Origin: Candidatus Methylomirabilis limnetica
Lineage (GTDB): Bacteria; Methylomirabilota; Methylomirabilia; Methylomirabilales; Methylomirabilaceae
NCBI RefSeq assembly: GCF_003044035.1
Contig: NZ_NVQC01000009.1
Location: 90,001-122,000 of the forward strand
DNA: 32,000 nt
Reading direction: 5' to 3'
The first letter of the stretch is position 1; each line of letters begins with the position of its first letter. The notes below the pieces were generated by a model. That model did no database searches. It had not been told where the DNA came from and was given only the letters and a program-made list of their open reading frames with translations. The translations under genes were made by a program, and so were the position numbers. This document shows positions 6,629 to 28,751 of the stretch, in pieces.

Positions 6629-6988
6629 ATGGCAGCAGATTATGCAGTTGTAGGAGTGTTTCTGGTCGTCGGGCTGCTCTTCGTTGTACTGAATGTTGAC
6701 GTAGTTTCCCGACTGCTTCGGCCAAGTAATCCTCAACGCGAAAAGTTGACCACGTATGAATGCGGGGAGGACCCGGTCGGTGCATCCTGGATCCGTATTC
6801 ACGTCCGATACTACCTGTATGCCTTGGTCTACGTGATCTTCGCGGTAGAAACAATCTACCTGCTTCCTTGGGCAGTGGTCTTCCGGAGGCTGGGGATGTT
6901 TGCTTTTGTGGAGATGATGCTCTTTATCGCCATTCTGCTGGTCGGTTTCGCCTACGCCTGGCGGAAGGGCGCTCTGGAGTGGGTCTGA
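6629..6988 (+). CDS. nuoA: NADH-quinone oxidoreductase subunit A (operon 1)
   Basis: 119 aa with 3 TM segments. It has the conserved YECGEDP and LLPWAVVF motifs. Confidence 0.93.
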   Translation: MAADYAVVGVFLVVGLLFVVLNVDVVSRLLRPSNPQREKLTTYECGEDPVGASWIRIHVRYYLYALVYVIFAVETIYLLPWAVVFRRLGMFAFVEMMLFIAILLVGFAYAWRKGALEWV

Positions 6989-7452
6989 TGACGCCGGATG
7001 AGGTCACTGAAGCCATCAAGTCGCAGTTCGGCGACGCCGTCAAGGCTTCAGAGGTCAAGGGTGTCGAGGCCCGAATGGATATCCATCAGGAGAAGAACTA
7101 CGAGATTCTCATCGCGATCAAGGGGATGGGGTTCGACTACCTGAACTGCCTGAGCGCTGTGGATAGACTTGCAAGCGGCGAGCTCGAAGTGGTTTACAAC
7201 ATCTCCTCCCTGTCGCAACCAACGAAGGTCCTGGTGAGGGTACGGATTCCGCGGGAGGATCCGATCATCCGGAGCGTGGTGTCGCTGTGGGGCACAGCAG
7301 ACTGGCATGAACGGGAGGCCTTCGACATGATGGGGATCCGCTTCGATGGTCATCCTGATCTCCGGCGGATCCTGACCTCTGAGGACTGGGTGGGATATCC
7401 GTTGCGTAAAGATTATCAAGACGAACGGCTGGTTCCGTACGAGCCGGTCTAG
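6988..7452 (+). CDS. nuoC: NADH-quinone oxidoreductase subunit C (operon 1)
   Basis: ATG 6988 overlaps the nuoA stop (TGATG). 154 aa with [26 protein letters not shown]. The 230-aa ORF-track entry (6760..) is an out-of-frame overlap with nuoA. Confidence 0.92.
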   Translation: MTPDEVTEAIKSQFGDAVKASEVKGVEARMDIHQEKNYEILIAIKGMGFDYLNCLSAVDRLASGELEVVYNISSLSQPTKVLVRVRIPREDPIIRSVVSLWGTADWHEREAFDMMGIRFDGHPDLRRILTSEDWVGYPLRKDYQDERLVPYEPV

Positions 7453-7477
7453 TGACGTTTTCAGTTGAGGCAGGCAG

Positions 7478-8611
7478 ATGAGTCCGCAAGAGATGGAGAT
7501 CGCTGAACAGACCCAGGAGACGATGGAGGAGATGTACGTCAACATGGGGCCGCAGCACCCCAGCACGCACGGCGTGCTCCGCCTCTTGTTGAAGCTGGAT
7601 GGTGAGGTCGTGACCGAGGTCATCCCGTACATCGGCTACTTGCATCGCTGCCATGAAAAGATCGGCGAGAACCGCACCTACACCCAGATCATCCCGTATA
7701 CCGATCGACTGGACTATCTCGCCTCCATGTATAACAACTTCGGCTATGTATTGACGGTGGAAAGGCTCATCGGGCTTGCTGTGCCGGAGCGAGCCGAGTA
7801 TATGCGGGTGATCCTGGGGGAGTTGCAACGGATCGCCAGTCACCTGATCTGGTTGGGGACGTTAGGCCTTGACCTGGGCAACTTTACGATTTTCATGTAC
7901 GCCTTCCGGGAGCGGGAGAAGATCCTGGATCTCTTCGAGTCTGTTTCGGGGCAGCGGTTGAACTACGCTTTCTACCGGATCGGAGGGATGCCGTTAGACT
8001 TTCCCGATTCCTTCCTGACCGATTGCAAGGCATTTCTGGAATGGTTTAAACCGCGTCTGCCAGAGTACGACGCGCTGATGAGTGACAACATCATCTTCCA
8101 GAAGCGGGTACAGGGCCTCGGAAAACTCGATGCAAAGACCGCCATCGATTACGCCATCAGCGGGCCGATGCTCCGTGCCTCCGGGATCAAGTGGGATCTA
8201 CGCCGGAACGATCCGTACTCCATTTACGATCGCTTCGAGTTCGACATCCCGGTGGGAACCTCCGGAGACGTCTGGGACCGATATATGGTCAGACGCATCG
8301 AGATGGACGAGAGCGTAAAGATCGTTGAGCAGGCCCTTCAGGGGCTGCCGTCCGGTGAGATTATCGGGAAGGTGCCGAAAAAGCTGAAGCCGCCAGTCGG
8401 AGACATCTATACCAGGGTGGAGTCGCCCAGGGGCGAACTTGGATTCTACCTCGTTTCAGACGGCTCCGAGAAACCGTACCGGTACAAGGTTCGCTCCCCG
8501 GCCTTTGTCAATTTGAGTGTACTTCCCATAATTGGTCGAGGCTGCCTCGTCGCTGATATCGTGGCCATCCTGGGGAGCATCGACATCGTGCTGGGCGAGG
8601 TAGATCGCTAG
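7478..8611 (+). CDS. nuoD: NADH-quinone oxidoreductase subunit D (operon 1)
   Basis: 377 aa. Motifs: [23 protein letters not shown], and the C-terminal [13 protein letters not shown]. Confidence 0.95.
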
Positions 8612-8664: not shown

Positions 8665-8673
8665 AGTGTAAGT

Positions 8674-9690
8674 ATGGAAGGTTTGACGGAGAGCTTCTAC
8701 AGCATTTTTGAGACCAGGGGGGTACCCTTGTTCGTCCCCCAGTTGATCGTGATGGTGATGGTGGCCACGGCCGTTCTCATTTTCGTTGCCGTCTCCGTCA
8801 TGTTCATGGTCTGGTGGGAGCGGAAGATCAGCGCCCACATCCAGGTTCGCTTTGGGCCGATGCGCGTCGGTGGCTGGCATGGCTGGGCCCAGAGTATCGC
8901 CGATGGAATCAAGCTCCTCATTAAGGAGGATATCGTTCCGGAGGGGGCTGACCGGCTTGTGTTTGCCCTGGCGCCCATGGTGGTCTTTGCGGCCGGGTTT
9001 GCCGCCTATGTCATCATCCCGTTTGGTCCGGGCCTCATCGTCAGCGATCTGAACATCGGTGTGCTCTTCTACATTTCTATCTCCTCCCTGACGGTGGTGG
9101 GAATCATCATGGCCGGCTGGAGCTCTAACAACAAGTATTCAGTCCTCGGCGCGGTCCGCTCGGCGGCGCAGGCGGTAAGCTACGAGGTCCCCCTCGTGGT
9201 CTCGATCCTTGGGGTTGTCATGACGGTCGGCTCCCTGAGTATGACCCGGATCGTAGAGGCACAGCAGGGGGTCTGGTTTGTGATCCCGCAACTGCTCGGC
9301 TTCCTCATCTTTCTGACCGCAGCCATCGCTGAATGCAACCGGCTGCCATTTGACATCCCGGAGGCTGAGTCAGAGCTGGTGGCCGGCTTTCATGTTGAGT
9401 ACAGCGGGATGCGATTTGCCATCTTCTTCCTGGCGGAATACGCCAATATGTTCACGGTGTCGGCCATCGCCACCGCGCTGTTTCTGGGCGGCTGGCATGG
9501 GCCGCTGCTGCCGGGGTGGCTTTGGTTCCTTCTGAAGACCTATTTCCTCATTTTTGTGATGATGTGGCTGCGCTGGACGCTGGCCAGGCTGCGAGTCGAT
9601 CAACTCATGTACCTGGGGTGGAAGGTCTTGCTGCCGCTGGCTTTTCTGAATATGGGGATTACCGGATTAATTCTGGTACTGCGAGGGTAG
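8674..9690 (+). CDS. nuoH: NADH-quinone oxidoreductase subunit H (operon 1)
   Basis: 338 aa, polytopic. Motifs: [41 protein letters not shown]. Confidence 0.95.
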
Positions 9691-9708
9691 TACGGTGGAG
9701 TTACGCTC

Positions 9709-10215
9709 GTGACTGTGACCCAAGTCGTATTCTTCCTCATGGCTACTTTCACCGTGGGGGCATCCCTTCTGGTGGTCCTGGCCAGAAACATCGTGCATTG
9801 CGCTATCGCATTGGTTTTTGCGTTCTTTGGCGTGGCTGCGCTGTTCATCCTGCTCGATGCCGAGTTCCTGGCAGCCACGCAGGTGCTGTTGTACGTGGGG
9901 GGCATCACCATCCTCCTACTCTTCGCCATCATGTTGACCAGCCGGATCTCGGCCAGAGGGGTGAAGATCATGAACGAGCAGGTGGGGATCAGCGCGGTGG
10001 TGGCCCTCGCTCTCTTTGGGCTCATGGTATATGCCAACCTGAAGGGTTTTCCCGCTCTGGTGCCGCCCGTGCTGGCCGAGTCAGATAATACCGCCTCGCT
10101 CGGGAGGCTCCTTCTGACCACCTATGTCCTGCCATTTGAGATCGTGTCGCTCCTCCTCCTGGCGGCCATGGTGGGCGCCATCGTCCTGGCTCGACGCGAG
10201 CAGGGGAAGGACTGA
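9709..10215 (+). CDS. nuoJ: NADH-quinone oxidoreductase subunit J (operon 1)
   Basis: 168 aa with a GTG start after GGTGGAG. Motifs: LLYVGGITILLLFAIML and the C-terminal PFEIVSLLLLAAMVGA. Confidence 0.92.
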   Translation: MTVTQVVFFLMATFTVGASLLVVLARNIVHCAIALVFAFFGVAALFILLDAEFLAATQVLLYVGGITILLLFAIMLTSRISARGVKIMNEQVGISAVVALALFGLMVYANLKGFPALVPPVLAESDNTASLGRLLLTTYVLPFEIVSLLLLAAMVGAIVLARREQGKD

Positions 10216-10218: not shown

Positions 10219-10527
10219 ATGGTGCCACTTTCGTACTACCTGATCCTCAGCGCGATGCTCTTTACCATCGGGATGTTTGGAGCCCTGACGCGCCGCAATG
10301 CTATCGGGGTCCTTATGGCGCTGGAGCTTATGTTCAATGCCATCAACGTGAGCTTCGTGGCGTTTTCTCGTTATCTTCCCCAGCAGATGCTGCAGGGGCA
10401 GATCTTTGCGATCTTTGTCATTACCGTGGCGGCAGCCGAGGCCGCAGTGGGGTTAGCGATCGTCCTTGGACTGTACCGGAACTTTAAGACGATTAATGTC
10501 GATGAGATCAACCTGATGAAATGGTAG
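10219..10527 (+). CDS. nuoK: NADH-quinone oxidoreductase subunit K (operon 1)
   Basis: 102 aa with 3 TM segments. Motifs: [30 protein letters not shown]. Confidence 0.93.
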
Positions 10528-10701: not shown

Positions 10702-12738
10702 ATGAAACTCGTTGCGCTTGTGCCACTCCTGCCACTGATCGGGTTCCTGATCAACGGGCTGTTCGGTGCCTGGATCAAGGATCGAGCCCATCTGGTGGCT
10801 ATCCCTGCCGCAGGACTGTCATGCCTTGTGGCGTTTATCGTCTTCTTTCAGACGATTGGTGGTGCGACGCTCGATTGGGACATCTATTCATGGCTGGAGG
10901 TCGGCGACCTCAAAGTGCCGATCGGGATTCTGGTCGATCCGCTCTCGACCGTTATGATGCTGGTGGTGACCTTCGTTGGACTTCTCATTCATATCTATTC
11001 GATCGGCTATATGCACGGCGATCGAAGCTTCGCTCGTTTCTTTACCTATCTCAACCTCTTCATGTTCTCCATGCTGGTGTTGGTGCTCGCCAACAACTAT
11101 CTTCTCATGTTCTTGGGGTGGGAGGGGGTTGGGCTCTGTTCATACCTGCTGATTGGCTTTTGGTATGAGAAACAATCGGCCGCGGATGCCGGAAAGAAGG
11201 CGTTCGTCGTCAATCGGATCGGCGATGCCGGCTTCATGATCGGACTCTTTTTCATCTGGAGCACCTTCGGAACGGTGAAGTACACCGAGGTGTTTGCAGC
11301 CGTCGACCCCGCTTTAGGCGCGGGGATCTACACCACCATTACGCTGCTCCTGTTCGTGGGTGCGATGGGAAAGTCGGCCCAGCTTCCGCTCTACGTCTGG
11401 CTCCCAGATGCCATGGAGGGGCCCACTCCGGTCTCGGCCCTGATCCATGCCGCCACGATGGTGACGGCAGGCGTCTATATGGTTGCCCGATCGAACCCCC
11501 TCTTTAACCTTGCGCCTTTCAGCCTCGAAGTAGTGGCCTGGGTCGGCGCGCTGACGGCGGTCTTTGCGGCCACGATTGCGCTGGTTCAGAACGACATCAA
11601 AAAGGTGGTGGCCTACTCTACCATTTCTCAGCTCGGCTATATGTTTATTGGCGCCGGTGCTGGCGCCTACGCCTCATCCGTCTTTCACCTCGCCACCCAC
11701 GCCTTTTTCAAGGCGCTCCTCTTCCTCGGCGCAGGCTCGGTCATTCATTCCCTCCATGGCGAACAGGATATCAGGAAGATGGGTGGACTGTGGAAGGCGA
11801 TGCCGATAACTGCCTGGACCTTCCTGCTGGCCTCGTTGGCGAACGCCGGGATCTTTCCCCTGGCGGGTTTCTGGTCCAAAGATGAGATTCTATTCAATGC
11901 CTATGTGCGAGGGCTGACGATCCCATGGCTCCTGGGGCTGATCGGTGCCTTCCTGACAGCCTTCTACATGTTTAGGCTGTTCTTTCAGGTCTTCACCGGG
12001 CATTTTCGCGGTGACCACCATACCGCCCATCACCTGCACGAATCGCCGCCGAACATGGCGTATCCGCTGCTGGTGCTCGGCGTCCTTTCGGTGATTGCGG
12101 GACTGGCGCTCGGATTCCCCCCGGATCATGGGCTCTATCACAAATTCGTCGCGCCGATCTTTGAGGCCGCCCACGGATCAGAGGCGGCTGTCGGGCATGG
12201 TGTCGGAGAGGCCGCCGAGCATGCGATGGAAGGGGGCACCGGGCATGCGGTGGCTGCGGCTGCCGGGCATGCGGCGGGCGCATCCGAGCTTGTTATGGCC
12301 GCGGTCTCGCTGGCGGTTGCGCTGGCCGGGATCGGCCTCGCCTATCTGTTCTACGTCAAACGGCCGGATATACCCGCGGCGCTGGCGGACAAGCTGCGCG
12401 GTCTCTACAACCTGTTACTGAACAAGTATTGGGTTGATGAGCTATACGAAGCGATCTTCATCGATTTTGGCAAGCGCTTCTGTAGATTTCTGTGGGGATT
12501 CGATTCTCGGGTCGTAGACGGCGTAGTCAACGGGAGCGGCTGGCTGACCATGCGGTTGAGCACGATTTCTGCCTGGGGCGACCTGAAGATTGTGGATGGT
12601 CTGGTCAACGCCATCGCGGATTTGATCCAAGGCGGAAGCATGACCCTCCGTCGATTGCAGACGGGAGCTATCCAAAGCTACATCCTGGCCATGGCGCTCG
12701 GCATCCTTGGCATGGTCGTGTTCTATCTGTTCGTGTAA
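10702..12738 (+). CDS. nuoL: NADH-quinone oxidoreductase subunit L (operon 1), long form with a His/Ala/Gly-rich insert
   Basis: 678 aa. Mrp-antiporter-like motifs: GWEGVGLCSYLLIGFW, GKSAQLPLYVWLPDAMEGPTPVSALIHAATMV. The C-terminus has a lateral-helix region (NKYWVDELYE). Confidence 0.95.
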   Translation: MKLVALVPLLPLIGFLINGLFGAWIKDRAHLVAIPAAGLSCLVAFIVFFQTIGGATLDWDIYSWLEVGDLKVPIGILVDPLSTVMMLVVTFVGLLIHIYSIGYMHGDRSFARFFTYLNLFMFSMLVLVLANNYLLMFLGWEGVGLCSYLLIGFWYEKQSAADAGKKAFVVNRIGDAGFMIGLFFIWSTFGTVKYTEVFAAVDPALGAGIYTTITLLLFVGAMGKSAQLPLYVWLPDAMEGPTPVSALIHAATMVTAGVYMVARSNPLFNLAPFSLEVVAWVGALTAVFAATIALVQNDIKKVVAYSTISQLGYMFIGAGAGAYASSVFHLATHAFFKALLFLGAGSVIHSLHGEQDIRKMGGLWKAMPITAWTFLLASLANAGIFPLAGFWSKDEILFNAYVRGLTIPWLLGLIGAFLTAFYMFRLFFQVFTGHFRGDHHTAHHLHESPPNMAYPLLVLGVLSVIAGLALGFPPDHGLYHKFVAPIFEAAHGSEAAVGHGVGEAAEHAMEGGTGHAVAAAAGHAAGASELVMAAVSLAVALAGIGLAYLFYVKRPDIPAALADKLRGLYNLLLNKYWVDELYEAIFIDFGKRFCRFLWGFDSRVVDGVVNGSGWLTMRLSTISAWGDLKIVDGLVNAIADLIQGGSMTLRRLQTGAIQSYILAMALGILGMVVFYLFV

Positions 12739-12861: not shown

Positions 12862-14589
12862 ATGAATGTTCTTCAGTTTCCGATACTATCCCTGATGACA
12901 TACCTGCCCCTCGTCGGGGTGTTCTTCATCTCGCTGCTCCCGAAGGAGTGCAAGGGCGGTGTCCGCTGGACTGCCCTTGCCTTCACGATAGCCGACCTTT
13001 TGGTTTCCCTGTGGATCCCTGCCTACTTCGACTCTACGACTGCGCAGATGCAGTTCGTAGAGAAGGCCTCATGGATTCCCTCCCTTGGTGTGACCTATTT
13101 CTTCGGCCTCGATGGGATCAGTCTGTGGCTCGTCTTGCTGACCACTTTCCTCTCCGTTATCGCCGTCATCTGCTCATGGGAATCGGTCAGTATGCGGCTG
13201 AAGGAGTATTACGCCTTTATCCTGATGCTGGAGACGGGAATGCTCGGAGTCTTTTTTTCCCTCGACTTCTTTCTCTTCTATATCTTTTGGGAAGTGATGC
13301 TGGTTCCAATGTACTTCCTCATCGGCATCTGGGGAAGCGACCGTCGCCTCTACTCGGCCATCAAATTCTTTCTGTATACGCTCTTCGGCGGCGTCATCAT
13401 GCTGCTGGGAATCCTGGCGGTCTACTTCTATCATGGCGCCCAGACCGGGATCTACACATTCGACATCCTGGATCTGATGAAGCTCTCGTATCCCTCAACT
13501 CCCATCTTCACGCTGCTGGGCCTTTCGTTCTCGTTCCAGGATCTGGTCTGGCTTGCATTCTTTTTGGGCTTTGCCATCAAGGTCCCGATGTTTCCCTTTC
13601 ACACGTGGCTGCCTGACGCCCACACCGATGCCCCGACAGCCGGCAGTGTCATCCTGGCCGGCGTCCTCCTGAAGATGGGGACCTACGGCTTCATCCGGAT
13701 CAATCTGCCGCTGCTCCCAGAGTCCACCCAACACTTTGTTCCGATGATCATGATCCTGTCGATCATCGCGATCATTTACGGGGCTCTGGTCTGTATGGTT
13801 CAGACCGACATGAAACGGTTGATTGCCTACAGCTCTGTCAGCCACATGGGGTTCATTGTGCTGGGTATGTTCGCCCTGAATCCCCAAGGGGTCCAGGGCA
13901 GTATCATCCAGATGGTGAACCACGGCCTTTCAACCGGCGCCCTCTTTCTCATCGTGGGCCTGATCTATGATCGCCGACATACAAGGCAGATCTCTGAGTT
14001 TGGAGGTCTGTCGAAACAGATGCCGGTCTACGCCACACTGTTCGCCATTATTATGTTTTCTTCCATGGGGCTTCCTGGACTAAACGGCTTCATCGGCGAG
14101 TTTTTGATTCTTATCGGGGCCTTCAAGGAAAATTATGTCTGGGCCGCTTTTGCTGTCACCGGGATCGTGCTCGGCGCGGCCTATATGTTGTGGCTGTACC
14201 AGCGGACCATGTTCGGGGCGCTGGATAACCCAAAGAATGCGGATCTCCCTGACCTGAGTTTCAGGGAGCTGACGACTCTCGTCCCGATCGTCGTCATGTG
14301 TTTCTGGATTGGCCTCTACCCCTCCCCGTTCCTTAGTCGGACGGAAGCGTCGGTGAATTATATCCTGGCACGGGTTCACAAACAGCAGGCCGTTACCGAG
14401 CCTACCCTGAGTAGTCCAGCCACTTCTGGTTCGACACGGCTCACCACAGGCTTCGACAGGCCTGCCATGAGCTTTGTCGAAGGGCTCAGGACGAGCGGCT
14501 GGAGCATCGAAGCTGGTCTGGAGCCCGGGAGATCTGTATTGCCGGTCCAGGGATCTGCCATGGACCACTCCGGAGGGTCTCGTGACTGA
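12862..14589 (+). CDS. nuoM: NADH-quinone oxidoreductase subunit M (operon 1) with a C-terminal tail of about 60 aa
   Basis: 575 aa. Motifs: KVPMFPFHTWLPDAHTDAPTAGSVILAGVLLKMG, and LIAYSSVSHMGF. The AGGAGG SD lies 12 nt before the ATG. Confidence 0.95.
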   Translation: MNVLQFPILSLMTYLPLVGVFFISLLPKECKGGVRWTALAFTIADLLVSLWIPAYFDSTTAQMQFVEKASWIPSLGVTYFFGLDGISLWLVLLTTFLSVIAVICSWESVSMRLKEYYAFILMLETGMLGVFFSLDFFLFYIFWEVMLVPMYFLIGIWGSDRRLYSAIKFFLYTLFGGVIMLLGILAVYFYHGAQTGIYTFDILDLMKLSYPSTPIFTLLGLSFSFQDLVWLAFFLGFAIKVPMFPFHTWLPDAHTDAPTAGSVILAGVLLKMGTYGFIRINLPLLPESTQHFVPMIMILSIIAIIYGALVCMVQTDMKRLIAYSSVSHMGFIVLGMFALNPQGVQGSIIQMVNHGLSTGALFLIVGLIYDRRHTRQISEFGGLSKQMPVYATLFAIIMFSSMGLPGLNGFIGEFLILIGAFKENYVWAAFAVTGIVLGAAYMLWLYQRTMFGALDNPKNADLPDLSFRELTTLVPIVVMCFWIGLYPSPFLSRTEASVNYILARVHKQQAVTEPTLSSPATSGSTRLTTGFDRPAMSFVEGLRTSGWSIEAGLEPGRSVLPVQGSAMDHSGGSRD

Positions 14590-16033
14590 CGCGTTCAACA
14601 TGGCAGACATCTCCACTGCCTCGCCAGAGGTGGTCATGGGCCTGGTGGCCATGGTGATCCTTATGCTCGACTTCATCGCCCCTAAAGGCGGACGAGACTG
14701 GCTGGGATATCTGAGCATCCTTGGCGTGCTTGCCACCTTCACGACCCTGATGGGCCAACGGGGGGCGACACAGCTCGCCTTCAGCGGGCAATACCTCAGC
14801 GATCCCTTCGCGTTCTTCTTCAAGATCGTATTTCTGGTCTCGGCCGCGCTCATTCTGCTCATGTCGATTGGCCACCTGAAGAGCGAAGGAATTGACAAAG
14901 GGGAGTTCTACGGGCTGATCCTCTTCGCCACACTGGGAATGATGTTGATGGTCAGTGCTGTAGACCTCCTGATTCTCTACATCGGCATGGAGACGATGTC
15001 GATTTCCATTTACATTCTCGCGGGATTCCTGAAGCGGGAGCGGCGAAGCGGCGAGGCCGCCCTGAAGTACCTGCTCATGGGAGGGTTCTCCTCTGCGATC
15101 ATGCTGTACGGCATCGTGATGCTGTATGGTCTTACCGGCACCATCGGCCTGAGAGAGATTGCCTCGACGCTGTCAGCAGACACCGCCTCGAATCCGGCGC
15201 TCATCCTGGCCATGGTGATGCTAGTGGCCGGCTTCGGGTTCAAGATCGCGGCGGTCCCCTTTCACATGTACATCCCCGACGTATATGAGGGCGCCCCTAC
15301 CCCTGTAGCGGCCCTCCTGGCGGCGGCCTCAGAGGTTGCCGGTCTCGCTATTCTCTTGCGGGTCTTTCTGGTGGCCATCCCAGGACTACAGGATCGCTGG
15401 ACGTTTCTCTTTTACACCCTATCCTTGCTCACGATGACGGTGGGAAATGTCGTGGCGATTGCGCAGAGCAATATCAAGCGGATGCTGGCCTACAGCTCCA
15501 TCGCCCACATCGGGTACCTGCTGATCGGAGTTGTGGCGGGACGGGAGCTGGGGATCTCAGCCATACTGCTGTATACCCTGATCTATGCCCTGATGACACT
15601 CGGCGTCTTTGCCATGGTTATCCTTCTCTGCGTAGGAAAGGTGAAGGGGGAACAGATCGACGACTTCACTGGCCTGGCTCAGCGAAGCCCCATGGCAGCG
15701 GCCGCCATGTTGATCTTCCTCCTCTCATTGGCTGGCGTCCCCCCGACCGCAGGCTTTGTCGGGAAGCTCTATCTCTTCGGTGCAGCCATCGAAGGAGGGT
15801 ACATCTGGCTCGCGGTGATTGCTGTCATCAATTCAGCCATCTCGGTGTTCTATTACATGAAGGTGGTGGTGGCGATGTACATGCGAGATCTTCCGCCACA
15901 GGGCCTTACCTTGAGTTCTTCCCGGCCTCTGCGGGTCGCGCTATTTGTGACCCTGGCAGGAACCATCGCTATCGGGATCTACCCAGGTCCCTTCCTGGAG
16001 CTGGCTAGGGCCTCGGTCGCCGGACTCTGGTAA
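14582..16033 (+). CDS. nuoN: NADH-quinone oxidoreductase subunit N (operon 1)
   Basis: Motifs: KIAAVPFHMYIPDVYEGAPTPVAA, KRMLAYSSIAHIGY. The proposed start is GTG 14582 (GGAGGG SD at 14571-14576; it overlaps the nuoM stop). ATG 14600 is an alternative. The ORF-track start at 14474 lies inside the nuoM tail. Confidence 0.9.
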   Translation: MTDAFNMADISTASPEVVMGLVAMVILMLDFIAPKGGRDWLGYLSILGVLATFTTLMGQRGATQLAFSGQYLSDPFAFFFKIVFLVSAALILLMSIGHLKSEGIDKGEFYGLILFATLGMMLMVSAVDLLILYIGMETMSISIYILAGFLKRERRSGEAALKYLLMGGFSSAIMLYGIVMLYGLTGTIGLREIASTLSADTASNPALILAMVMLVAGFGFKIAAVPFHMYIPDVYEGAPTPVAALLAAASEVAGLAILLRVFLVAIPGLQDRWTFLFYTLSLLTMTVGNVVAIAQSNIKRMLAYSSIAHIGYLLIGVVAGRELGISAILLYTLIYALMTLGVFAMVILLCVGKVKGEQIDDFTGLAQRSPMAAAAMLIFLLSLAGVPPTAGFVGKLYLFGAAIEGGYIWLAVIAVINSAISVFYYMKVVVAMYMRDLPPQGLTLSSSRPLRVALFVTLAGTIAIGIYPGPFLELARASVAGLW

Positions 16034-19735: not shown

Positions 19736-19741
19736 TGTGGA

Positions 19742-19818
19742 GTTTCGAGTTTCGGGTTTGGAATTTCTGGTTGTGGCGAGCCTTGTTGACTCGAAACTCG
19801 AAACCCGAAACTCGAAAC
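19742..19818 (+). repeat. heptamer-array hairpin element E (nuoD2|nuoE2 junction)
   Basis: GTTTCGA GTTTCGG GTTTGGA ATTTCTG GTTGTGG, a 14-nt loop region, then TCGAAAC TCGAAAC CCGAAAC TCGAAAC. Confidence 0.85.
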
Positions 19819-19829
19819 CTTTACATACG

Positions 19830-20400: not shown

Positions 20401-21708
20401 ATGAGCGAAAAGATCCTTACGAAGCGGTTTGAGATCCCTGGGTATCGCGGGACCCTTGATGAGTACGAGGCTACCGGAGGGTATCAGGCCATTGCGAAAG
20501 CGCTCAAAGAGCATACGCCAGCCAGTCTAACCGAGATGGTGAAGCGGTCGGGGCTCAGGGGGCGTGGGGGGGCAGGCTTCCCCACCGGCGTCAAGTGGGG
20601 CTTTATTCCCAAGGATCCGGAGCTGCCCAAGTATCTCGTCTGTAATGCCGATGAGAGCGAGCCGGGGACGTTCAAGGACCGTGAGCTGATCATGCGCGAC
20701 CCGCACCAGCTCATCGAAGGGATCCTGCTGGCAAGTTTCGCCATCGGGTGTCGGACCGCCTATATCTATATCAGGGGCGAGTTCATTGCAGGGGCGTGTA
20801 TCCTCGAACAGGCGATCAGAGATGCGGCCGCCCGTGGTCTCGCGGGAAAGGATATCCTGGGGAGCAGCTTCAGTCTGGACCTCCACGTGCATCGAGGCGC
20901 CGGCGCCTACATCTGTGGAGAGGAGACCGCCCTGCTGGAATCATTAGAGGGTAAAAGGGGGTTGCCACGGTTGAAGCCCCCGTTTCCTGCCACGTCGGGG
21001 CTCTATCGCAAGCCCACCGTCGTGAATAATGTCGAAACTCTCAGCAATCTTCCGCATATCGTACTGCGTGGAGCCGAGTGGTTCTCGAGCATTGGAAGCC
21101 CCAAGAGTACGGGTACCAGGGTCTTCTCGATAAGTGGCCATGTTCGCCGGCCCGGTATCTACGAGTGCCCGATCAATGTCTCAATGAGAGAGTTGATTTT
21201 CGAGCATGCGGACGGGATGCGGGATGGTCGCCGCCTGAAGGCGGTGATTCCCGGAGGCTCCTCGGTGCCGGTTCTGACCGAGCAGCACCTGGATACCCGG
21301 ATGGACTTCGAATCTCTTGCCACGGTGGGCTCCATGGCCGGGTCTGGAGGCGTCATCGTGATGGATGAGACCACCTGCATGGTCCGGGTGGGCGAGGTCG
21401 TCTCTCGATTCTATCATCACGAATCGTGCGGGCAGTGCACGCAGTGCCGGGAGGGGACGGCGTGGTTACACAAGACACTGAGAAGGATCGAAGATGGTCG
21501 CGGACGAAAGGCGGATCTTGACCTCCTCCTGGACATCTGTGACAACATGAAGAGCAAAACCATTTGCCCCTTAAGCGATGCTGCCGCTATGCCGATTGAA
21601 AGCTACCTGAAGTACTTTCGTGATGAATTCGAGCGCCACATCGTGGATCGCGCCTGCCCGTTCGAAGCCCAGGTCGGGGCCTCGGCCAGGCCCATGGACG
21701 CGTCGTAG
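20401..21708 (+). CDS. nuoF: NADH-quinone oxidoreductase subunit F (51 kDa, FMN/NADH site, N3)
   Basis: 435 aa. Motifs: GLRGRGGAGFPTGVKW, and ESCGQCTQCREG...ICPL for the [4Fe-4S] ligands. Confidence 0.95.
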   Translation: MSEKILTKRFEIPGYRGTLDEYEATGGYQAIAKALKEHTPASLTEMVKRSGLRGRGGAGFPTGVKWGFIPKDPELPKYLVCNADESEPGTFKDRELIMRDPHQLIEGILLASFAIGCRTAYIYIRGEFIAGACILEQAIRDAAARGLAGKDILGSSFSLDLHVHRGAGAYICGEETALLESLEGKRGLPRLKPPFPATSGLYRKPTVVNNVETLSNLPHIVLRGAEWFSSIGSPKSTGTRVFSISGHVRRPGIYECPINVSMRELIFEHADGMRDGRRLKAVIPGGSSVPVLTEQHLDTRMDFESLATVGSMAGSGGVIVMDETTCMVRVGEVVSRFYHHESCGQCTQCREGTAWLHKTLRRIEDGRGRKADLDLLLDICDNMKSKTICPLSDAAAMPIESYLKYFRDEFERHIVDRACPFEAQVGASARPMDAS

Positions 21709-21751: not shown

Positions 21752-22741
21752 ATGATGCCAGAGGGCACCTTCCTCGTCCTCATGGTAGCGAAGATCGCCG
21801 TGGTCTTCGGTCTGATGTTGCTAAGTGTCGCCTACATGACCTGGCTGGAGCGCAAGATCCTCAGCGATATCCAGGTCCGACTCGGTCCGATGCGGGTCGG
21901 CCCCCACGGCCTGCTACAGCCGATCGCCGACGGGCTCAAGCTCTTGTTCAAGGAGGAGATCGTTCCCCAGGCCGCTGACCGGACACTCTACCTCCTGGCT
22001 CCCGTGCTTGCGCTGGTCCCTGCCTTCATCTCCTTTGCCGTAATCCCTTTCGGAGACCGGATCCGACTCTTCGGGCAGAGCATCGACCTGGTCATCGCTG
22101 ACGTCAATATCGGGCTGCTGTATGTGTTCGGTGTCGCCTCTCTCGGGATCTATGGGATCGTCCTGGGAGGGTGGGCCTCGAACAACAAGTACGCGCTGCT
22201 TGGGGGGCTGCGTGCCTCGGCCCAGATGATCAGCTATGAACTCTCCCTGAGTCTGTCGGTGGTGGGCGTGGTGATGCTGTCGCAATCGCTGAGCCTGGTG
22301 CAGATTGTGGATGCCCAGGCCAGGGTGTGGTTTATCGTCCTTCAGCCGATCGGTTTTATCATCTTCCTGATCTGTGCTGTCGCCGAGATCAATCGCGCTC
22401 CTTTCGATCTCCCGGAGGCCGAGACGGAACTGGTGGCCGGTTTTCACGTCGAGTACAGCTCAATGAAGTTCGCCATGTACTTTATGGCTGAGTATGCCAA
22501 CATGATCACCGTATCGGCCATGGCGACAACGCTGTTCCTGGGCGGGTGGAGGGGGCCGTGGTTGCCACCGGTGGTCTGGTTTCTCATTAAGCTCTATCTG
22601 TTTATTTTCCTCTTCATCTGGCTTCGAGGTACGCTGCCGCGCTTTAGATACGACCAACTGATGCGATTTGGGTGGAAGGTTCTGCTGCCCATTGCGCTGG
22701 TCAATATTATGGTCACGGCTGTGTTTGTTGCGTTGAGGTAA
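21752..22741 (+). CDS. nuoH: NADH-quinone oxidoreductase subunit H (operon 2)
   Basis: 329 aa. Motifs: [41 protein letters not shown]. Confidence 0.95.
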
Positions 22742-22743: not shown

Positions 22744-23250
22744 ATGGAATGGCTGGTGTTCGTTCCGCTGGCCGCAATGGCGCTCATCACTGCGGTTCTG
22801 GTCATCGTCATGCGAAATCCGGTCTACTGCGCCCTCTCGCTTATTGGGACGTTCTTCGCACTGTCGGGGATCTATCTGCTGTTGCAGGCGCAGTTCATCG
22901 CTGTCGTGCAGGTGATCGTCTATGCCGGAGCGATCATGGTCCTGTTCCTGTTCGTGGTCATGCTGCTCGACCTGGGTCATGAACTACCCGCCTGGCTGCA
23001 GCGAGATCGGCCCAGGCTCCTGCTCGGCATCGGTGTGGCTCTGCTCCTACTTGTTGAGTTGGCGATCCCTATCGGCTTCAGGACTCCTCACGGTCCCCAG
23101 GGCCTCTACACTTCAGAACTCGTGGGCGCCATCGGAAATACTCAAGTCGTCGGCCGTCTCCTGTTCACCGATTTTCTCATCCCATTTGAGATCACTTCTA
23201 TAATCCTGCTCATTGCCATTATTGGCGTCATGGTCTTAGCCAGGAGGTAG
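22744..23250 (+). CDS. nuoJ: NADH-quinone oxidoreductase subunit J (operon 2)
   Basis: ATG 22744 lies 2 nt after the nuoH2 stop. 168 aa with VIVYAGAIMVLFLFVVMLL and PFEITSIILLIAIIGV. Confidence 0.92.
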   Translation: MEWLVFVPLAAMALITAVLVIVMRNPVYCALSLIGTFFALSGIYLLLQAQFIAVVQVIVYAGAIMVLFLFVVMLLDLGHELPAWLQRDRPRLLLGIGVALLLLVELAIPIGFRTPHGPQGLYTSELVGAIGNTQVVGRLLFTDFLIPFEITSIILLIAIIGVMVLARR

Positions 23251-23409: not shown

Positions 23410-23721
23410 ATGACAGCAACCGTGCCTTTGAGCGCATACTTAATACTTAGCGCTGTCCTCTTTGTCATAGGGGTCATCGGGGTGCTGATCCGGCGTAATG
23501 TGCTGGTGATCTTCATGGCGATTGAGTTGATGCTGAATGCCGTCAATCTCACCTTTGTGGCCTTCTCAAGGTTTCTCCACTCGATGGATGGACAGATCAT
23601 TGTGTTGTTTGTGATGGCGGTGGCCGCAGCCGAGGTAGCAGTAGGGCTGGCCATCATCATTGCACTGCATAGAAATAAAGAGTCCTTAAATGTGGACGAG
23701 ATCAATCTCCTTAAAGGCTAG
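23410..23721 (+). CDS. nuoK: NADH-quinone oxidoreductase subunit K (operon 2)
   Basis: 103 aa. Motifs: [30 protein letters not shown]. Confidence 0.93.
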
Positions 23722-23790: not shown

Positions 23791-25686
23791 ATGATGATCT
23801 GGCTGATTCCCGTTGTTCCGCTGGTGGGAAGCCTCGTCGTCGGTCTGATGGGCCGCCGGATGCAGAGAGGGCTGGTGACGGGTATCGCCTGCGGCGCCAC
23901 ATCGCTTTCGTTGCTCCTTTCCCTGATGGCCTTTGTCCGTCTCCTTCAGATGCCGGCGGAAGGACGCCTGCTTCGCTCCTCCCTCGGCTCCTGGATCGCC
24001 TCCGGCGATTTCTCGGTCTCGTTCGGGTTCCTGTTCGATCCCCTCTCTGCCATCATGGCGCTGGTGGTGTGCGGCGTGGGCTTGCTGATACATATCTACT
24101 CGATCGGCTATATGCAGGAGGACCGCGACTATCACCGCTTCTTCTCGCTGCTCAACCTCTTCCTGGCTGAGATGCTGGTCCTGGTCCTGGCCGATAACTA
24201 CCTCCTGCTCTTTGTGGGATGGGAGGGGGTGGGCCTCTGTTCGTACCTGTTGATCGGCTTCTGGTTCGAACGACCTGCTGCGGCATCCGCCGGGACCAAG
24301 GCCTTCCTGGTGAACCGGATCGGCGACGGCGCCGTGGTTGTGGGGCTGATCTGGATGATCCTGCTGTTCGGGTCACTGGACTTCCAGACCGTGTTTACAG
24401 AAGCGCCGACCGTGCTTGCGCACGGCTCTGTTACCGCAATGCTTCTCACCCTCCTTCTCTTCATCGGGGCGACCGGTAAGTCGGCGCAACTCCCACTGTA
24501 TGTCTGGTTGCCTGATGCGATGGAGGGACCTACGCCGGTCTCGGCGCTTATCCATGCTGCTACCATGGTGACGGCAGGCGTCTACCTGGTCGCCCGTTCG
24601 GCTCCCCTGTTCCAGCTTGCGCCTGTGAGCCTGGAGATCGTGGCCTGGGTCGGTGGCCTCACGGCCCTCTATGCCGCAAGCATCGCCCTGGTTCAGACCG
24701 ACATCAAACGGATTATCGCCTACTCGACCATCTCCCAGCTCGGCTACATGTTTTTAGGCCTGGGAGTCGGGGCATACGCCGCAGGGATCTTTCACCTGAT
24801 GACGCATGCCTTCTTCAAGGCCCTTCTCTTCCTATCGGCCGGGTCGGTGATTCATGCGCTGGCCGGCGAGCAGGATATCAGGAAGATGGGGGGGCTGCGG
24901 AAGTCCCTCCGTGTCACTACCGGCAGCTTTCTCGTAGGCGCGCTGGCTAACGCCGGCATCGCTCCCTTCGCCGGCTTCTGGAGCAAGGACGAGATCCTCT
25001 TTGCCGCCTATACCTCGGGACATCGGCTGCTCTGGGTCATTGGGGTGCTGACCGCGGCGGGCACTGCCTTGTACATGTTTCGCCTCTATTTCCTTGCCTT
25101 CGAGGGGAAGTCGAGGCTTGACGCGCATACGCTTAAACACCTGCACGAGGCGCCGTGGAGCATGCGCCTGCCGCTGGTGCTGTTGGCGCTCGGGTCGGCG
25201 ACCGTCGGGTTTGTCGGTTTCCCGCCAGAGTCAGGCCCGTTTCAGCGATTCCTGGGTTCGGTTTTCCCGGTCCCGGTGCATGAGGCCTCGGTCGAGCCGA
25301 GCTCCGGGGTCGTGCTTGCGGTTGCGACTCTTGTAATGGCCCTGCTGGGGATCGGCGTGGCCTTTTGGTGCTATCTTCGGGATCCTACCAGACCCGAGGC
25401 GCTTGTCGCGCGGTATCCTGCGCTGCATCGCACCCTCTTTCACAAATATTGGGTTGATGAGCTGTACGATAAGGTCGTAATCCACCCGATCGTTACCTCC
25501 GCTCGCGCCATATCGGAGTCGTTCGATGCGCGCATAGTCGACGGGTCAGTCAACGGCATCGCGACACTTGCAATACGGGCCGGCAGCATGCTGAGGCGAC
25601 TTCAAACCGGCTATGTTCCAACCTATATCCTTTCGATCCTGGTGGGTGCCGTGGTCCTCTTGGGATACTTGGCGTTTTATGGATAG
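23791..25686 (+). CDS. nuoL: NADH-quinone oxidoreductase subunit L (operon 2)
   Basis: 631 aa. Motifs: GWEGVGLCSYLLIGFW, GKSAQLPLYVWLPDAMEGPTPVSALIHAATMV, HKYWVDELYD. Confidence 0.95.
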   Translation: MMIWLIPVVPLVGSLVVGLMGRRMQRGLVTGIACGATSLSLLLSLMAFVRLLQMPAEGRLLRSSLGSWIASGDFSVSFGFLFDPLSAIMALVVCGVGLLIHIYSIGYMQEDRDYHRFFSLLNLFLAEMLVLVLADNYLLLFVGWEGVGLCSYLLIGFWFERPAAASAGTKAFLVNRIGDGAVVVGLIWMILLFGSLDFQTVFTEAPTVLAHGSVTAMLLTLLLFIGATGKSAQLPLYVWLPDAMEGPTPVSALIHAATMVTAGVYLVARSAPLFQLAPVSLEIVAWVGGLTALYAASIALVQTDIKRIIAYSTISQLGYMFLGLGVGAYAAGIFHLMTHAFFKALLFLSAGSVIHALAGEQDIRKMGGLRKSLRVTTGSFLVGALANAGIAPFAGFWSKDEILFAAYTSGHRLLWVIGVLTAAGTALYMFRLYFLAFEGKSRLDAHTLKHLHEAPWSMRLPLVLLALGSATVGFVGFPPESGPFQRFLGSVFPVPVHEASVEPSSGVVLAVATLVMALLGIGVAFWCYLRDPTRPEALVARYPALHRTLFHKYWVDELYDKVVIHPIVTSARAISESFDARIVDGSVNGIATLAIRAGSMLRRLQTGYVPTYILSILVGAVVLLGYLAFYG

Positions 25687-25701
25687 CGCACAGGTGAAGG
25701 C

Positions 25702-27273
25702 ATGAGTCAGGCGGGAGGACCGATCTTATCGACGCTTATTGTGCTCCCTCTGCTTGGCGTCTTATTGCTTACGATTGTCGACGGAGCGCGTGAGGGGCTC
25801 ATCAAGAGGCTCGCACTGGCCGTCTCCGGCCTAGACCTTCTGCTCTCTCTCATCGTATATGTGCGCTTTGATCCCGCTCAGGCCGGTATGCAGTTCGTTG
25901 AGCGGGCGTCGTGGATCCCTTCGATCGGGAGTAGCTATTTTCTCGGAGTTGATGGGATCAGCCTTCCACTGTTGCTCCTCACGACGTTTCTCACGCCTAT
26001 CGCTATCCTCGCCTCTTTCTCCGGGATCGCGAGTCGGGTAAAAGCGTATATGATCTGCATGCTGCTGCTCCTAAGCGGCATGATTGGAGTGTTTGTTGCC
26101 CTGGATCTGGTGCTTTTCTACGTCTTCTGGGAGGGGATGCTGATCCCGATGTATTTTCTGATCGGCGTCTGGGGCGGCCCGAGGCGAATCTATGCCACCT
26201 TGAAGTTCGTCCTCTTTACGATGGCGGGAAGCGTCCTGATGCTGCTGGCGATGATCGCCCTCGCCTTCCTGCATCAGGAGAGTACAGGTCAGTTGACGTT
26301 TGACCTCCTGGAGCTGATCGGCGGGTCGATTTCATATGGGACGCAACTGTGGCTCTTCGCCGCCTTTGGCCTCGCCTTTGCCATCAAGGTGCCGATGTTC
26401 CCGTTTCACACATGGCTTCCGGATGCCCACGTAGAGGCGCCTACGGCGGGAAGCGTCCTATTGGCCGGGGTTCTCTTGAAGATGGGGACCTATGGTTTCC
26501 TCCGATTCGCGCTCCCGCTCTTTCCGGAAGCGGCCGTCGCCTTTACTCCTTTGATCTCTGCGCTTGCCGTGATCGGTATCCTGTACGGCGCGCTGGTTGC
26601 CATGGTTCAGGATGATCTCAAGCGGCTGATCGCCTATAGCTCAGTAAGTCACCTGGGGTTCGTGATGCTGGGCATCTTTGCCATGAACGTGCAGGCCGTG
26701 GAAGGGTCAATCCTCCAAATGGTCAATCATGGCCTCTCCACTGGCGCTCTCTTCCTGCTGATTGGGATGATCTATGAGAGGCGCCACACAAGGATGATAG
26801 AGGAGTTCGGTGGACTCTCCCGGACACTCCCTCGCTTTGCCCTCTGCTTCCTGGTTGTGACCATGTCGTCCATTGGCCTGCCAGGCCTGAATGGGTTTGT
26901 GGGCGAGTTCCTGATCCTGACGGGGACATTCCGCGTCCATAAAGGATTTGCGGTGATCGCTACCCTTGGGGTCATTCTGGCAGCGGTCTATATGCTCTGG
27001 ATGTGGCAACGCGTGATGTGGGGGAAAAGCCGACGGGCTGAGAATCTCACGCTCAACGATATCGGCTGTCGTGAGATGGCGATACTGGTCCCGATCATCC
27101 TGCTCATTCTATGGATTGGCCTGAACCCAAATCCCCTCCTCAGAAGGATGGATGCGTCGGTCATTCATCTCCTGGATGGGATGCGGATCGCGGCAACGTC
27201 CGAGGTGCAAATCCCTCCGTCCCCCCCTTTCGTAAAGGGGGGTTGGGGGGATTTGGTGCGGAGCGCGAATTGA
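25702..27273 (+). CDS. nuoM: NADH-quinone oxidoreductase subunit M (operon 2)
   Basis: 523 aa. Motifs: KVPMFPFHTWLPDAHVEAPTAGSVLLAGVLLKMG, LIAYSSVSHLGF. The last ~20 codons are encoded by a palindromic repeat. Confidence 0.95.
   Translation: MSQAGGPILSTLIVLPLLGVLLLTIVDGAREGLIKRLALAVSGLDLLLSLIVYVRFDPAQAGMQFVERASWIPSIGSSYFLGVDGISLPLLLLTTFLTPIAILASFSGIASRVKAYMICMLLLLSGMIGVFVALDLVLFYVFWEGMLIPMYFLIGVWGGPRRIYATLKFVLFTMAGSVLMLLAMIALAFLHQESTGQLTFDLLELIGGSISYGTQLWLFAAFGLAFAIKVPMFPFHTWLPDAHVEAPTAGSVLLAGVLLKMGTYGFLRFALPLFPEAAVAFTPLISALAVIGILYGALVAMVQDDLKRLIAYSSVSHLGFVMLGIFAMNVQAVEGSILQMVNHGLSTGALFLLIGMIYERRHTRMIEEFGGLSRTLPRFALCFLVVTMSSIGLPGLNGFVGEFLILTGTFRVHKGFAVIATLGVILAAVYMLWMWQRVMWGKSRRAENLTLNDIGCREMAILVPIILLILWIGLNPNPLLRRMDASVIHLLDGMRIAATSEVQIPPSPPFVKGGWGDLVRSAN
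27209..27254. repeat. ~46-bp two-segment palindromic element, copy 3, inside the 3' end of nuoM2
   Basis: AAATCC-CTCC-gt-CCCCCCTTT-cgt-AAAGGGGGG-tt-GGGG-GGATTT. It is translated as QIPPSPPFVKGGWGDL. Confidence 0.75.
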
Positions 27274-28751
27274 TGGAGCTTGTACTGCCTCAGATTGACT
27301 GGGCTCCCTTTGCGCCGCTCATACCGGTGGCCATTGGCGGTCTCACAACGTTGGTGACAGATCTCTTTCTGCCGCCGGGACGGAAATATCTCATCGCCAT
27401 CCTAAGCCTGATGGCGATCGCTGCATCGATCCTTATCTCGATCGGCTTATGGGGGCCCATCCTCGGCTCAGATCTGGAAATGGTTCGCTACGGGATTCAT
27501 GACGCGGTCGTGTTGGACCGATTTTCGCTCTTCTTTTATCTTGTGCTTGGCCTGGTCTCGATGCTCACCATCCTGCTGTCGATGGGCCACCTTGACACAG
27601 CAGCCGCTGACCAGGGAGAGTATTACAGCCTGGTGCTCTTCTCGACGTTGGGGATGATGCTGATGGCTGCAGGCGGGGATTTGATCGTAATTTTTCTGGG
27701 GCTGGAAACCTTCTCGCTCGCCCTGTACACGCTCGCTGGATTTTGGAGGACAGATCTTCGCTCCAACGAGTCGGCGCTGAAGTACCTCCTGCTTGGCGCC
27801 TTTGCCAGCGCCTTTTTCCTCTATGGTATTGCCCTGATCTATGGGGCGACCGGCACGACCATGCTTCGGCAGATTGCGGCCTTTCTTGCCGATGGGCATC
27901 CTCCCGCACCCCTGTTCATGATCGGAGGAGGATTGCTTCTGGTTGGGTTCGGCTTCAAGATCGCCTCCGTCCCGTTCCATATGTGGGCCCCTGACGTGTA
28001 TGAGGGGGCGCCCACCTCGGTCACAGCGTTCATGATCGCCGGGACCAAGGCTGCGGCTTTTGCCGCCTTCCTGCGGGTATTTCTTCTGGCTTTGCCTGCC
28101 CTTCACGTGCAGTGGTCGATGGCGATATGGGTTCTAGCGGTCCTCACCATGACCGTGGGGAATCTGGTTGCCCTGGTCCAAGACAACATCAAGCGGATGC
28201 TCGCCTATAGCTCGATCGCGCATGCCGGGTATCTGTTGGTAGCGTTGGTCGCTGGCGGATCATCCGGGGTCGCCAGCATCCTCTTCTACCTTGTCGCCTA
28301 TGCCCTCATGAACCTTGGCGCCTTCGCCGTCATCATCGCGTTGCAAGGTAATGAGCAAGAGCGGCTCTTGCTCACCGACTACGCCGGTCTTGGTTGGCAG
28401 CGGCCGGTCCTGGCCGCCTGCATGGCTATCTTTATGTTCTCGCTAGCCGGGATCCCTCCCACAGCCGGTTTCATGGGCAAGCTGTACATCTTCAGCGCCG
28501 CCCTTGAAGGCCACTATCTTGGCCTGGCGGTGATCGGTGTTCTGAACAGCGTGATCTCGGTCTACTTTTATCTCCGCGTCATCGTCATCATGTACATGAG
28601 TGAGGCAGCGTCCCCGCGGCCGCTCGTTCCGGCATCCGTAGCGGCCGTCCTGGCCGTAGTAATGTCCGTACTGGGGACCCTTCACCTTGGCCTGTTCCCG
28701 GCAGGGTTGCTGGATCTGGCCCGGCAGTCGATCGCAGCCGTCGCAGGATGA
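27273..28751 (+). CDS. nuoN: NADH-quinone oxidoreductase subunit N (operon 2)
   Basis: ATG 27273 overlaps the nuoM2 stop (TGATG). 492 aa with KIASVPFHMWAPDVYEGAPTSVTA and KRMLAYSSIAHAGY. Confidence 0.93.
   Translation: MELVLPQIDWAPFAPLIPVAIGGLTTLVTDLFLPPGRKYLIAILSLMAIAASILISIGLWGPILGSDLEMVRYGIHDAVVLDRFSLFFYLVLGLVSMLTILLSMGHLDTAAADQGEYYSLVLFSTLGMMLMAAGGDLIVIFLGLETFSLALYTLAGFWRTDLRSNESALKYLLLGAFASAFFLYGIALIYGATGTTMLRQIAAFLADGHPPAPLFMIGGGLLLVGFGFKIASVPFHMWAPDVYEGAPTSVTAFMIAGTKAAAFAAFLRVFLLALPALHVQWSMAIWVLAVLTMTVGNLVALVQDNIKRMLAYSSIAHAGYLLVALVAGGSSGVASILFYLVAYALMNLGAFAVIIALQGNEQERLLLTDYAGLGWQRPVLAACMAIFMFSLAGIPPTAGFMGKLYIFSAALEGHYLGLAVIGVLNSVISVYFYLRVIVIMYMSEAASPRPLVPASVAAVLAVVMSVLGTLHLGLFPAGLLDLARQSIAAVAG

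Follow-up and report, generated by a model that had tools for sequence, protein, structure and literature searches.

Two Split nuo Gene Sets Probably Encoding Two Complex I Isozymes in Candidatus Methylomirabilis limnetica

Two Complex I Gene Sets Distributed Over Several Loci

Respiratory complex I (NADH:quinone oxidoreductase, encoded by the nuo genes) is represented by two paralogous operons in a 32,000-nucleotide stretch of the genome of Candidatus Methylomirabilis limnetica, a member of the phylum NC10 (contig NZ_NVQC01000009.1, positions 90,001 to 122,000; termed here the window), and both of these operons lack the genes for two iron-sulfur (Fe-S) subunits, nuoB and nuoI. Elsewhere in the same genome we located two nuoB-nuoI pairs, termed a and b, as well as a nuoG gene directly upstream of the a pair. 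Based on gene content and sequence affinity, it is likely, and we hold this with good confidence, that the M. limnetica genome specifies two complete complex I isozymes, each from genes located at two or three loci. In this arrangement, both enzymes would draw on the window for their membrane-arm genes (A, H, and J-N) and for the genes of their non-Fe-S or N-module subunits (C and D; in operon 2, also E and F). The Fe-S subunits bridging the path of the electrons (NuoB, NuoI, and NuoG) would be supplied from two small units elsewhere. Operon 1 together with NuoB(a) and NuoI(a) would yield an 11-subunit, NuoEF-less complex I-like enzyme, with an electron donor (ferredoxin, for example) other than NADH through NuoE/NuoF; operon 2 together with NuoB(b), NuoI(b), and NuoG would yield a canonical 14-subunit NADH:quinone oxidoreductase. 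We infer that NuoG serves the enzyme containing NuoE and NuoF, and that both enzymes are expressed.

Absence of nuoB, nuoI, and nuoG From the Window

A Pfam scan of plus-strand open reading frames (ORFs) assigned operon 1 as nuoA-C-D-H-J-K-L-M-N (6629-16033) and operon 2 as nuoA-C-D-E-F-H-J-K-L-M-N (17699-28751), the same gene orders that an earlier note, made from the letters of this DNA, had described; these genes, and the others of the window whose coordinates are given below, lie on the + strand unless stated otherwise. In operon 1, the start of nuoC (6988..7452; PF00329, 134.5 bits; start codon checked) overlaps the stop of nuoA (6629..6988; PF00507, 130.9 bits) with one base in common (TGATG), so that there is no space for nuoB, and nuoJ (9709..10215; PF00499) begins 18 nt past nuoH (8674..9690; PF00146, 417 bits), which leaves no space for nuoI. 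Operon 2 is closed at the same two junctions: nuoC (18064..18570; PF00329, 165.5 bits; start codon checked) overlaps nuoA (17699..18076; PF00507, 139.5 bits) by 13 nt, leaving no space for nuoB, and nuoJ (22744..23250; PF00499) begins 2 nt past nuoH (21752..22741; PF00146, 442 bits), leaving none for nuoI. The overlaps and the nuoH-nuoJ spacings reported in the earlier note were reproduced here from coordinates and start codons. Operon 2 is also without nuoG, because the gap between nuoF and nuoH is only 43 nt; this loss was implicit in the gene order listed previously, and was not stressed there.

A six-frame motif scan of the window returned no CxxCxxCxxxC(P) ferredoxin motif and no credible NuoB motif set, and a tblastn search of the window with the Escherichia coli NuoB and NuoI proteins returned nothing better than E = 0.3, in agreement with the previous statement that the window has no ORF for either subunit. 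As a positive control, the same two queries found the in-operon nuoB and nuoI in 39/39 Ignavibacteria loci. Fusion of nuoB or nuoI into a neighboring gene was also considered, and is ruled out by the normal length and single Pfam domains of the A, C, H, and J products. No extra conserved ORF of unassigned function was found within either operon in the ORF list or by Pfam.

The nuoB-nuoI Pairs and nuoG at Separate Loci

The search for nuoB and nuoI in trans began with the in-operon NuoI from a basal NC10 locus, and the genomic context of its NC10 matches was inspected; a NuoB found beside such a match was the next query, and its Methylomirabilis matches were followed in turn. In M. limnetica, the a locus (L173) consists of nuoG (534 aa), nuoB(a) (175 aa; PTL35053.1), nuoI(a) (178 aa), and trxB, and the b locus (L169) consists of genes for a cysteine desulfurase, a radical SAM protein, and an A-type Fe-S carrier, followed by nuoB(b) (181 aa) and nuoI(b) (153 aa; PTL35415.1). 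The window itself is tied to this organism by NuoD1 and NuoF2 (numerals denote the operon), which are identical to the M. limnetica records PTL36987.1 and PTL37000.1, respectively, from a 171 kb contig. The contigs with the a and b loci come from one ENA sample at ∼660x coverage, and a sibling of the sequencing run in which the window NuoD1 occurs likewise has the a locus. The suggestion in the earlier note that NuoB and NuoI might be encoded elsewhere is thus borne out by PTL35053.1 (NuoB) and PTL35415.1 (NuoI) on other contigs. These trans genes carry NuoB and NuoI annotations in public records.

Related genomes have comparable units. The a unit of M. oxyfera (complete genome FP565575.1) and of M. 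lanthanidiphila reads nuoG (544 aa)-nuoB (175 aa)-nuoI (176 aa)-trxB, followed by moeA, and the b unit, ∼8 kb from the a unit in both genomes, reads nuoB (181-183 aa)-nuoI (153 aa), followed by yjbQ. Upstream of nuoB(b), genes for a cysteine desulfurase and an ErpA-like A-type Fe-S carrier occur in M. limnetica (L169 155-4202) and in M. oxyfera (L086 17311-19473); in M. lanthanidiphila (L088 17349-19317), the desulfurase is present at nuoB(b) but the carrier gene is not. A closed NC10 chromosome with the B-less, I-less operon 1 (L019) has the order merR-nuoB-nuoI-moaA at a distance of 3.2 Mb (L081), and a second NC10 assembly with the same layout has its operon 1 at locus L015 and a nuoB-nuoI pair at locus L083. 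A single contiguous nuoA-N operon is therefore not the arrangement here: nuoB, nuoI, and nuoG are found on other contigs or at distant chromosomal positions.

Some database names given to M. oxyfera proteins mask these roles: NuoG (L086 8261-9895) is termed a "putative molybdopterin oxidoreductase Fe4S4 region" or "molybdopterin-dependent oxidoreductase," and NuoI(a) (L086 10540-11070) is termed a "putative 4Fe-4S ferredoxin" in UniProt. The trxB gene, the product of which is a thioredoxin-disulfide reductase (TIGR01292, 391 bits against a cutoff of 343), starts 1-2 nt past nuoI(a) in M. limnetica, M. oxyfera, and M. lanthanidiphila (L173 3774-4706; L086 11072-12001), as if the genes formed one transcript.

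Assignment of the Pairs to the Operons

The two pairs differ in their affinities, and these differences match those of the operons. With the NuoI that basal NC10 loci retain inside operon 1, NuoI(a) shares 58-66% identity and NuoI(b) only 34-37%; NuoI(a) is orthologous to this in-operon protein, and its gene is thus the relocated operon 1 gene. With the NuoB of the 11-subunit Ignavibacteria enzymes, NuoB(a) shares 58-61% identity and NuoB(b) 52-54%. The order is reversed for the E. coli proteins, to which NuoB(b) and NuoI(b) are 60% and 44% identical, respectively, and NuoB(a) and NuoI(a) 52% and 33%. Scores against Thermus thermophilus follow the same division, with 460 bits for NuoD2 (Nqo4) vs. 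392 for NuoD1, and 245 bits for NuoB(b) (Nqo6) vs. 195 for NuoB(a). In the relatives of operon 2, among the metagenome matches listed, the in-operon NuoB (22/22) and in-operon NuoI (47/47) all match the b copies best.

The NuoD proteins can be distinguished in a similar manner. NuoD1 (7478..8611; PF00346, 324 bits) is of the 11-subunit type, and its best PDB match is the cyanobacterial NdhH (397 bits); after residue 310, the alignment reveals the lack of a 25-residue segment found in NuoD2 and canonical NuoD, a deletion shared with the Ignavibacteria NuoD. NuoD2 (18563..19735; PF00346, 395 bits; start at GTG 18563 or ATG 18581) is of the canonical type. By descent, as traced through these sequence affinities, the a pair belongs with operon 1 (11-subunit type) and the b pair with operon 2 (canonical 14-subunit type), and each pair would be expected to assemble with the module of its own operon.

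The earlier note had proposed, as one of two options, a mix-and-match complex I, in which NuoB and NuoI are encoded elsewhere and shared between alternative modules. The first part of this proposal stands; a single shared set is not needed, given that there are two B-I pairs with operon-matching affinities. The copies found are not fewer than the quinone-binding (Q) and membrane modules that they would serve: there are two B-I pairs for two operons, and one nuoG was found for one operon with nuoE and nuoF. Dedicated nuoB and nuoI genes elsewhere for each operon, one pair per operon, are the outcome that the earlier note had itself set against its proposal.

A weaker form of sharing, in which a single NuoG, and possibly either B/I pair, docks on both of the Q/membrane modules, is an unlikely alternative. 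It is favored by the position of the sole nuoG found, in an apparent operon with the a-type and not the b-type pair, by the 61% identity of NuoB(a) and NuoB(b) to each other and the 52% identity of NuoD1 and NuoD2, and by the consideration that encoding in trans lifts the cis-coupling that usually separates paralogous subunits. However, the two pairs have clearly different affinities that match the operons, such that sharing is not required; NuoI(a) and NuoI(b) are only ∼31% identical, and interchange at the NuoI position is therefore unlikely; and operon 1, without nuoE and nuoF, has no obvious use for NuoG.

Integrity and Completeness of the Two Sets

In complex I, NuoB binds cluster N2, and NuoI binds clusters N6a and N6b. 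Both NuoB copies have the CC..E, GACxxxGG, and GCPP cysteines that are the N2 ligands, and both NuoI copies have two CxxCxxCxxxCP motifs (the b copy of each was read in M. oxyfera). Both NuoB copies pass NuoB models, with a score of 258.5 against a cutoff of 116 for the M. limnetica NuoB(b) with the NCBIfam NuoB model, and the M. limnetica NuoI(b) passes the NCBIfam NuoI equivalog model (197.1 against a cutoff of 163). NuoG passes the equivalog TIGR01973 (504.7 against a cutoff of 470) and matches complex I 75 kDa subunits (∼300 bits) above formate dehydrogenases (257 bits); it is short at the C-terminus.

The operon 2 set thus has all of the genes for 14 subunits: 11 in the window, nuoB(b) and nuoI(b) on L169, and nuoG on L173. 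It also retains the four cysteine ligands of NuoB and the two CxxCxxCxxxCP motifs of NuoI, and the QHPSTHG and DRMDY motifs of the quinone site are invariant in the NuoD alignment. The N-module is present at the level of domains for NuoE, NuoF, and NuoG; in the window, this domain-level comparison matched NuoE (19737..20330) to PF01257 (155.6 bits) and NuoF2 (20401..21708) to PF01512 and PF10589. The operon 1 set includes the genes for the 11 subunits of the reduced form, with nine in the window and nuoB(a) and nuoI(a) on L173, and has no dedicated nuoE or nuoF; no donor-binding subunit came to light for it. Both NuoD1 and NuoD2 keep the quinone-site His of QHPSTHG and the Tyr of DR(L/M)DY, so the previous reading of these residues was upheld by the alignment.

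These observations also bear on the possibility, raised in the earlier note, that a non-homologous, unrecognised partner replaces NuoB and NuoI. Nothing positive speaks for such a partner, as neither the junctions nor the rest of the window holds a candidate gene, and neither operon contains an extra conserved ORF of unassigned function. The genome itself encodes canonical NuoB and NuoI with all of their Fe-S ligands, in copy numbers that fit the two operons, and we regard replacement as extremely improbable.

Several points weigh against the assignment of two complete, separate isozymes. The score of NuoI(a) with TIGR01971 is 104.1, just below the cutoff of 113.05; NuoI is still its best family match, and by sequence it is a divergent NuoI. 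The copy numbers of nuoB, nuoI, and nuoG are lower bounds, and the genome may hold a further B/I pair beyond these two, another nuoG, or a third nuo operon. In addition, the only nuoG found is directly upstream of the a pair, with which it is probably co-transcribed, while nuoE and nuoF occur in operon 2 only. Because nuoG adjoins the a pair and nuoE/nuoF are confined to operon 2, the gene neighborhood and the phylogenetic pairing disagree for this subunit. NuoE and NuoF need NuoG to attach. The possibilities are that nuoG is encoded at the a locus and serves operon 2, that NuoG is shared by both enzymes, or that another nuoG is present elsewhere.

The grouping of nuoG with the 11-subunit-type pair makes it conceivable that NuoG docks on either Q-module. 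In a broader version of this idea, which we consider quite unlikely, the nuoB, nuoI, and nuoG genes of both isozymes would be gathered by cofactor-biogenesis genes (cysteine desulfurase, A-type Fe-S carrier, radical SAM, moeA, and trxB) as a separate control point that ties the supply of the peripheral arm to Fe-S availability, and NuoG, perhaps with the E/F module, would dock on either Q-module to form a modular complex I.

Conservation and Origin of the Layout

A scan with NuoD1, using one genome per species, yielded 41 loci from NC10/Methylomirabilota and 39 from Ignavibacteria/Melioribacter, and all window proteins were mapped onto these loci. The order A-C-D-H-J-K-L-M-N, without nuoB or nuoI, occurs in ∼35 independent NC10 assemblies with a NuoD1 identity of 74-99%, and these include the closed chromosome mentioned above, which is 5.6 Mb in length. 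An artefactual deletion of nuoB and nuoI during assembly, which the earlier note had kept in mind, is ruled out by this recurrence, including in the closed chromosome and in the complete genome of M. oxyfera.

In seven basal NC10 loci (L030, L032-L034, L036, L037, and L039), nuoI is still situated between nuoH and nuoJ of operon 1 and nuoB is absent. The Ignavibacteria relatives, whose NuoD is 56-63% identical to NuoD1, have the standard 11-gene order A-B-C-D-H-I-J-K-L-M-N. Since the basal NC10 loci keep nuoI but are already without nuoB, the two genes left operon 1 at different times. From these comparisons of gene order, the B-less, I-less layout is real and old, and arose stepwise, with nuoB leaving first and nuoI later.

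Decay of an operon commonly first shows itself in the loss of essential genes, and on these grounds we considered whether one of the gene sets is a remnant, inactivated by the loss of nuoB and nuoI, in a cell with a single functional complex I. There is no positive evidence for this. The nine genes of operon 1 and the 11 of operon 2 are all full length without internal stops, the layout is kept with intact genes across the NC10 assemblies at the level of NuoD identity given above, the quinone-site His and Tyr are kept in both NuoD copies, and matching, intact B/I pairs are retained elsewhere in the genome. Decay of either set is, on this evidence, very improbable.

Relatives of operon 2 were obtained from a metagenome scan anchored on NuoH2, with at least 80 loci, mostly from non-NC10 relatives at 48-74% identity, which were used as the outgroup set. 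Among the metagenome matches listed, several have reduced forms: A-C-D-E-F-G-H-J... (no B, no I); A-B-C-D-E-F-H-J... (no G, no I); D-E-F-H-J; A-H-J-K-L-M-N (membrane arm only); and A-(NuoE-like)-H-J-K. The forms other than D-E-F-H-J are recorded at loci L101, L106, L108, L137, L145, L158, L102, L105, L120, L128, L126, L148, L115, and L117, and also at L036 20089-20995.

Three of the loci with NC10-type nuo synteny and 75-90% NuoD1 identity are labeled as other taxa ("Patescibacteria group bacterium," L003; "Candidatus Baltobacteraceae," L028; and "Candidatus Sulfotelmatobacter," L029); judging from synteny and identity, these are probably mis-binned or mislabelled contigs of metagenome-assembled genomes (MAGs). 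A further NC10 MAG, which has a normal operon 1 (L014), also contains a nuoA-nuoD pair on its own (L027 9603-11113; NuoD 78% identical to NuoD1); YHS, HMA, and metal-resistance genes surround this pair, and the nearest 10 kb are free of other nuo genes. This pair was considered as a hiding place of nuoB and nuoI and was ruled out, as its neighbors are metal-resistance genes.

Comparison With Known Complex I Gene Sets

Operon 2 together with NuoB(b), NuoI(b), and NuoG comprises all 14 core subunits of the canonical complex I of T. thermophilus, E. coli, and Mycobacterium smegmatis. It differs from canonical complex I in that nuoB, nuoG, and nuoI of Methylomirabilis are at other loci and there is no single nuoA-N operon; the Methylomirabilis NuoG is also short (534-544 aa) in comparison with the Thermus protein (783 aa). 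Operon 1 together with NuoB(a) and NuoI(a) comprises the same 11 subunits as the NuoEFG-less enzymes of the Ignavibacteria/Chlorobi type and the cyanobacterial NDH-1 core. In Ignavibacteria, all 11 genes are in one operon, whereas in NC10 nuoB has always moved out, and nuoI has done so in most lineages.

Multi-locus nuo paralogues are found in Aquifex aeolicus. Aquifex peripheral-arm chains ("C/D 2," "B," and "chain G"; 7q5y) were among the PDB matches obtained here. In Nitrospina gracilis, the genes of a second complex I, NUO-2, are scattered, with nuoB2 and nuoF2 standing alone and the rest organized as nuoACHIJKLMN and nuoEGD (Lucker et al., 2013; PMC3578206). A nuoB outside the main cluster thus has a precedent in the literature, with the difference that in Nitrospina nuoI stays in the main cluster and nuoD has moved (PMC3578206). 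The Nitrospina NuoF2 and NuoG2 have extra Fe-S clusters and lack a flavin mononucleotide site (PMC3578206); the window NuoF2 was compared by its Pfam domain matches only, which are normal.

More broadly, a recent survey (bioRxiv 10.1101/2025.03.13.643058) states that split and single-cluster gene sets occur side by side within most complex I clades; the portions consulted contain no account of two paralogous operons both without nuoB and nuoI and with the two B-I pairs together elsewhere. Full-text searches of the literature available here found no description of the complex I gene organization of Methylomirabilis, and a comparative-genomics paper (PMC6094997) has no mention of NADH, nuo, or complex I. 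The Methylomirabilis layout is a further case of a split nuo gene set, which is a kind already documented, and not a new type of enzyme.

For practical purposes, a census of subunits in which the nuo genes must be colocalised, or which is based on the original annotations, could miss a complete complex I in Methylomirabilis. With two full sets present in the genome, energy-metabolism models of this nitrite-dependent methanotroph should account for both an NADH-oxidising complex I and a complex I-like enzyme without NuoE/NuoF. The same three Fe-S subunits have been exported repeatedly, stepwise within NC10 and, among other environmental operons, in varying combinations; their export from both paralogous operons, together with their gathering near cofactor-biogenesis genes, is a mildly interesting pattern.

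Remaining Genes of the Operons and Their Surroundings

The remaining genes of operon 1 are nuoK (10219..10527; PF00420), nuoL (10702..12738; PF00361 and PF00662), nuoM (12862..14589; PF00361), and nuoN (14600..16033; PF00361 and PF19530), the last with an approximate start, likely at the ATG at 14600. In operon 2, these are nuoK (23410..23721; PF00420), nuoL (23791..25686; PF00361 and PF00662), nuoM (25702..27273; PF00361 and PF01059), and nuoN (27273..28751; PF00361), the ATG of which, at 27273, overlaps the nuoM2 stop.

Between operons 1 and 2 there are an atpZ-like ORF (16291-16506, assigned by sequence appearance only), atpB (16552-17274; PF00119, ATP synthase a subunit), and atpE (17300-17668; PF00137, ATP synthase c subunit), and the other atp genes are not alongside. 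The stop of atpE is only 30 nt before the start of nuoA2, and the atpZ-like ORF, atpB, and atpE may therefore be co-transcribed with operon 2. In the mapping of window proteins across NC10 loci, the order atpB-atpE-nuoA2-nuoC2 usually comes after operon 1.

Downstream of operon 2 there is a gene for the redox-sensing repressor Rex (28748..29416; PF06971 and PF02629; database name "Rex"); ubiD, on the minus strand, is also downstream. The Rex protein is near-identical to an M. limnetica record (approximately PTL37005.1). The start of rex overlaps the stop of nuoN2 (ATGA), and rex is for this reason probably the last gene of operon 2. We searched the window and the M. oxyfera nuoG-nuoB-nuoI locus (L086) for the Rex operator pattern TTGTGAAN6TTCACAA, with up to 3 mismatches. 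One chance-level match was found in the window (751-770) and none in L086, with none upstream of either operon; shared Rex regulation linking the window operons with the trans loci was dropped, given that the operator matches are at chance level only.

Upstream of operon 1 are lptD, hemB, hemL, and a cytochrome c gene. A strong terminator-like hairpin (a 10-bp stem followed by a T run) is located at 6500-6523, between the cytochrome c gene and nuoA1, and its position suggests that operon 1 has its own promoter within the 100 nt that follow it.

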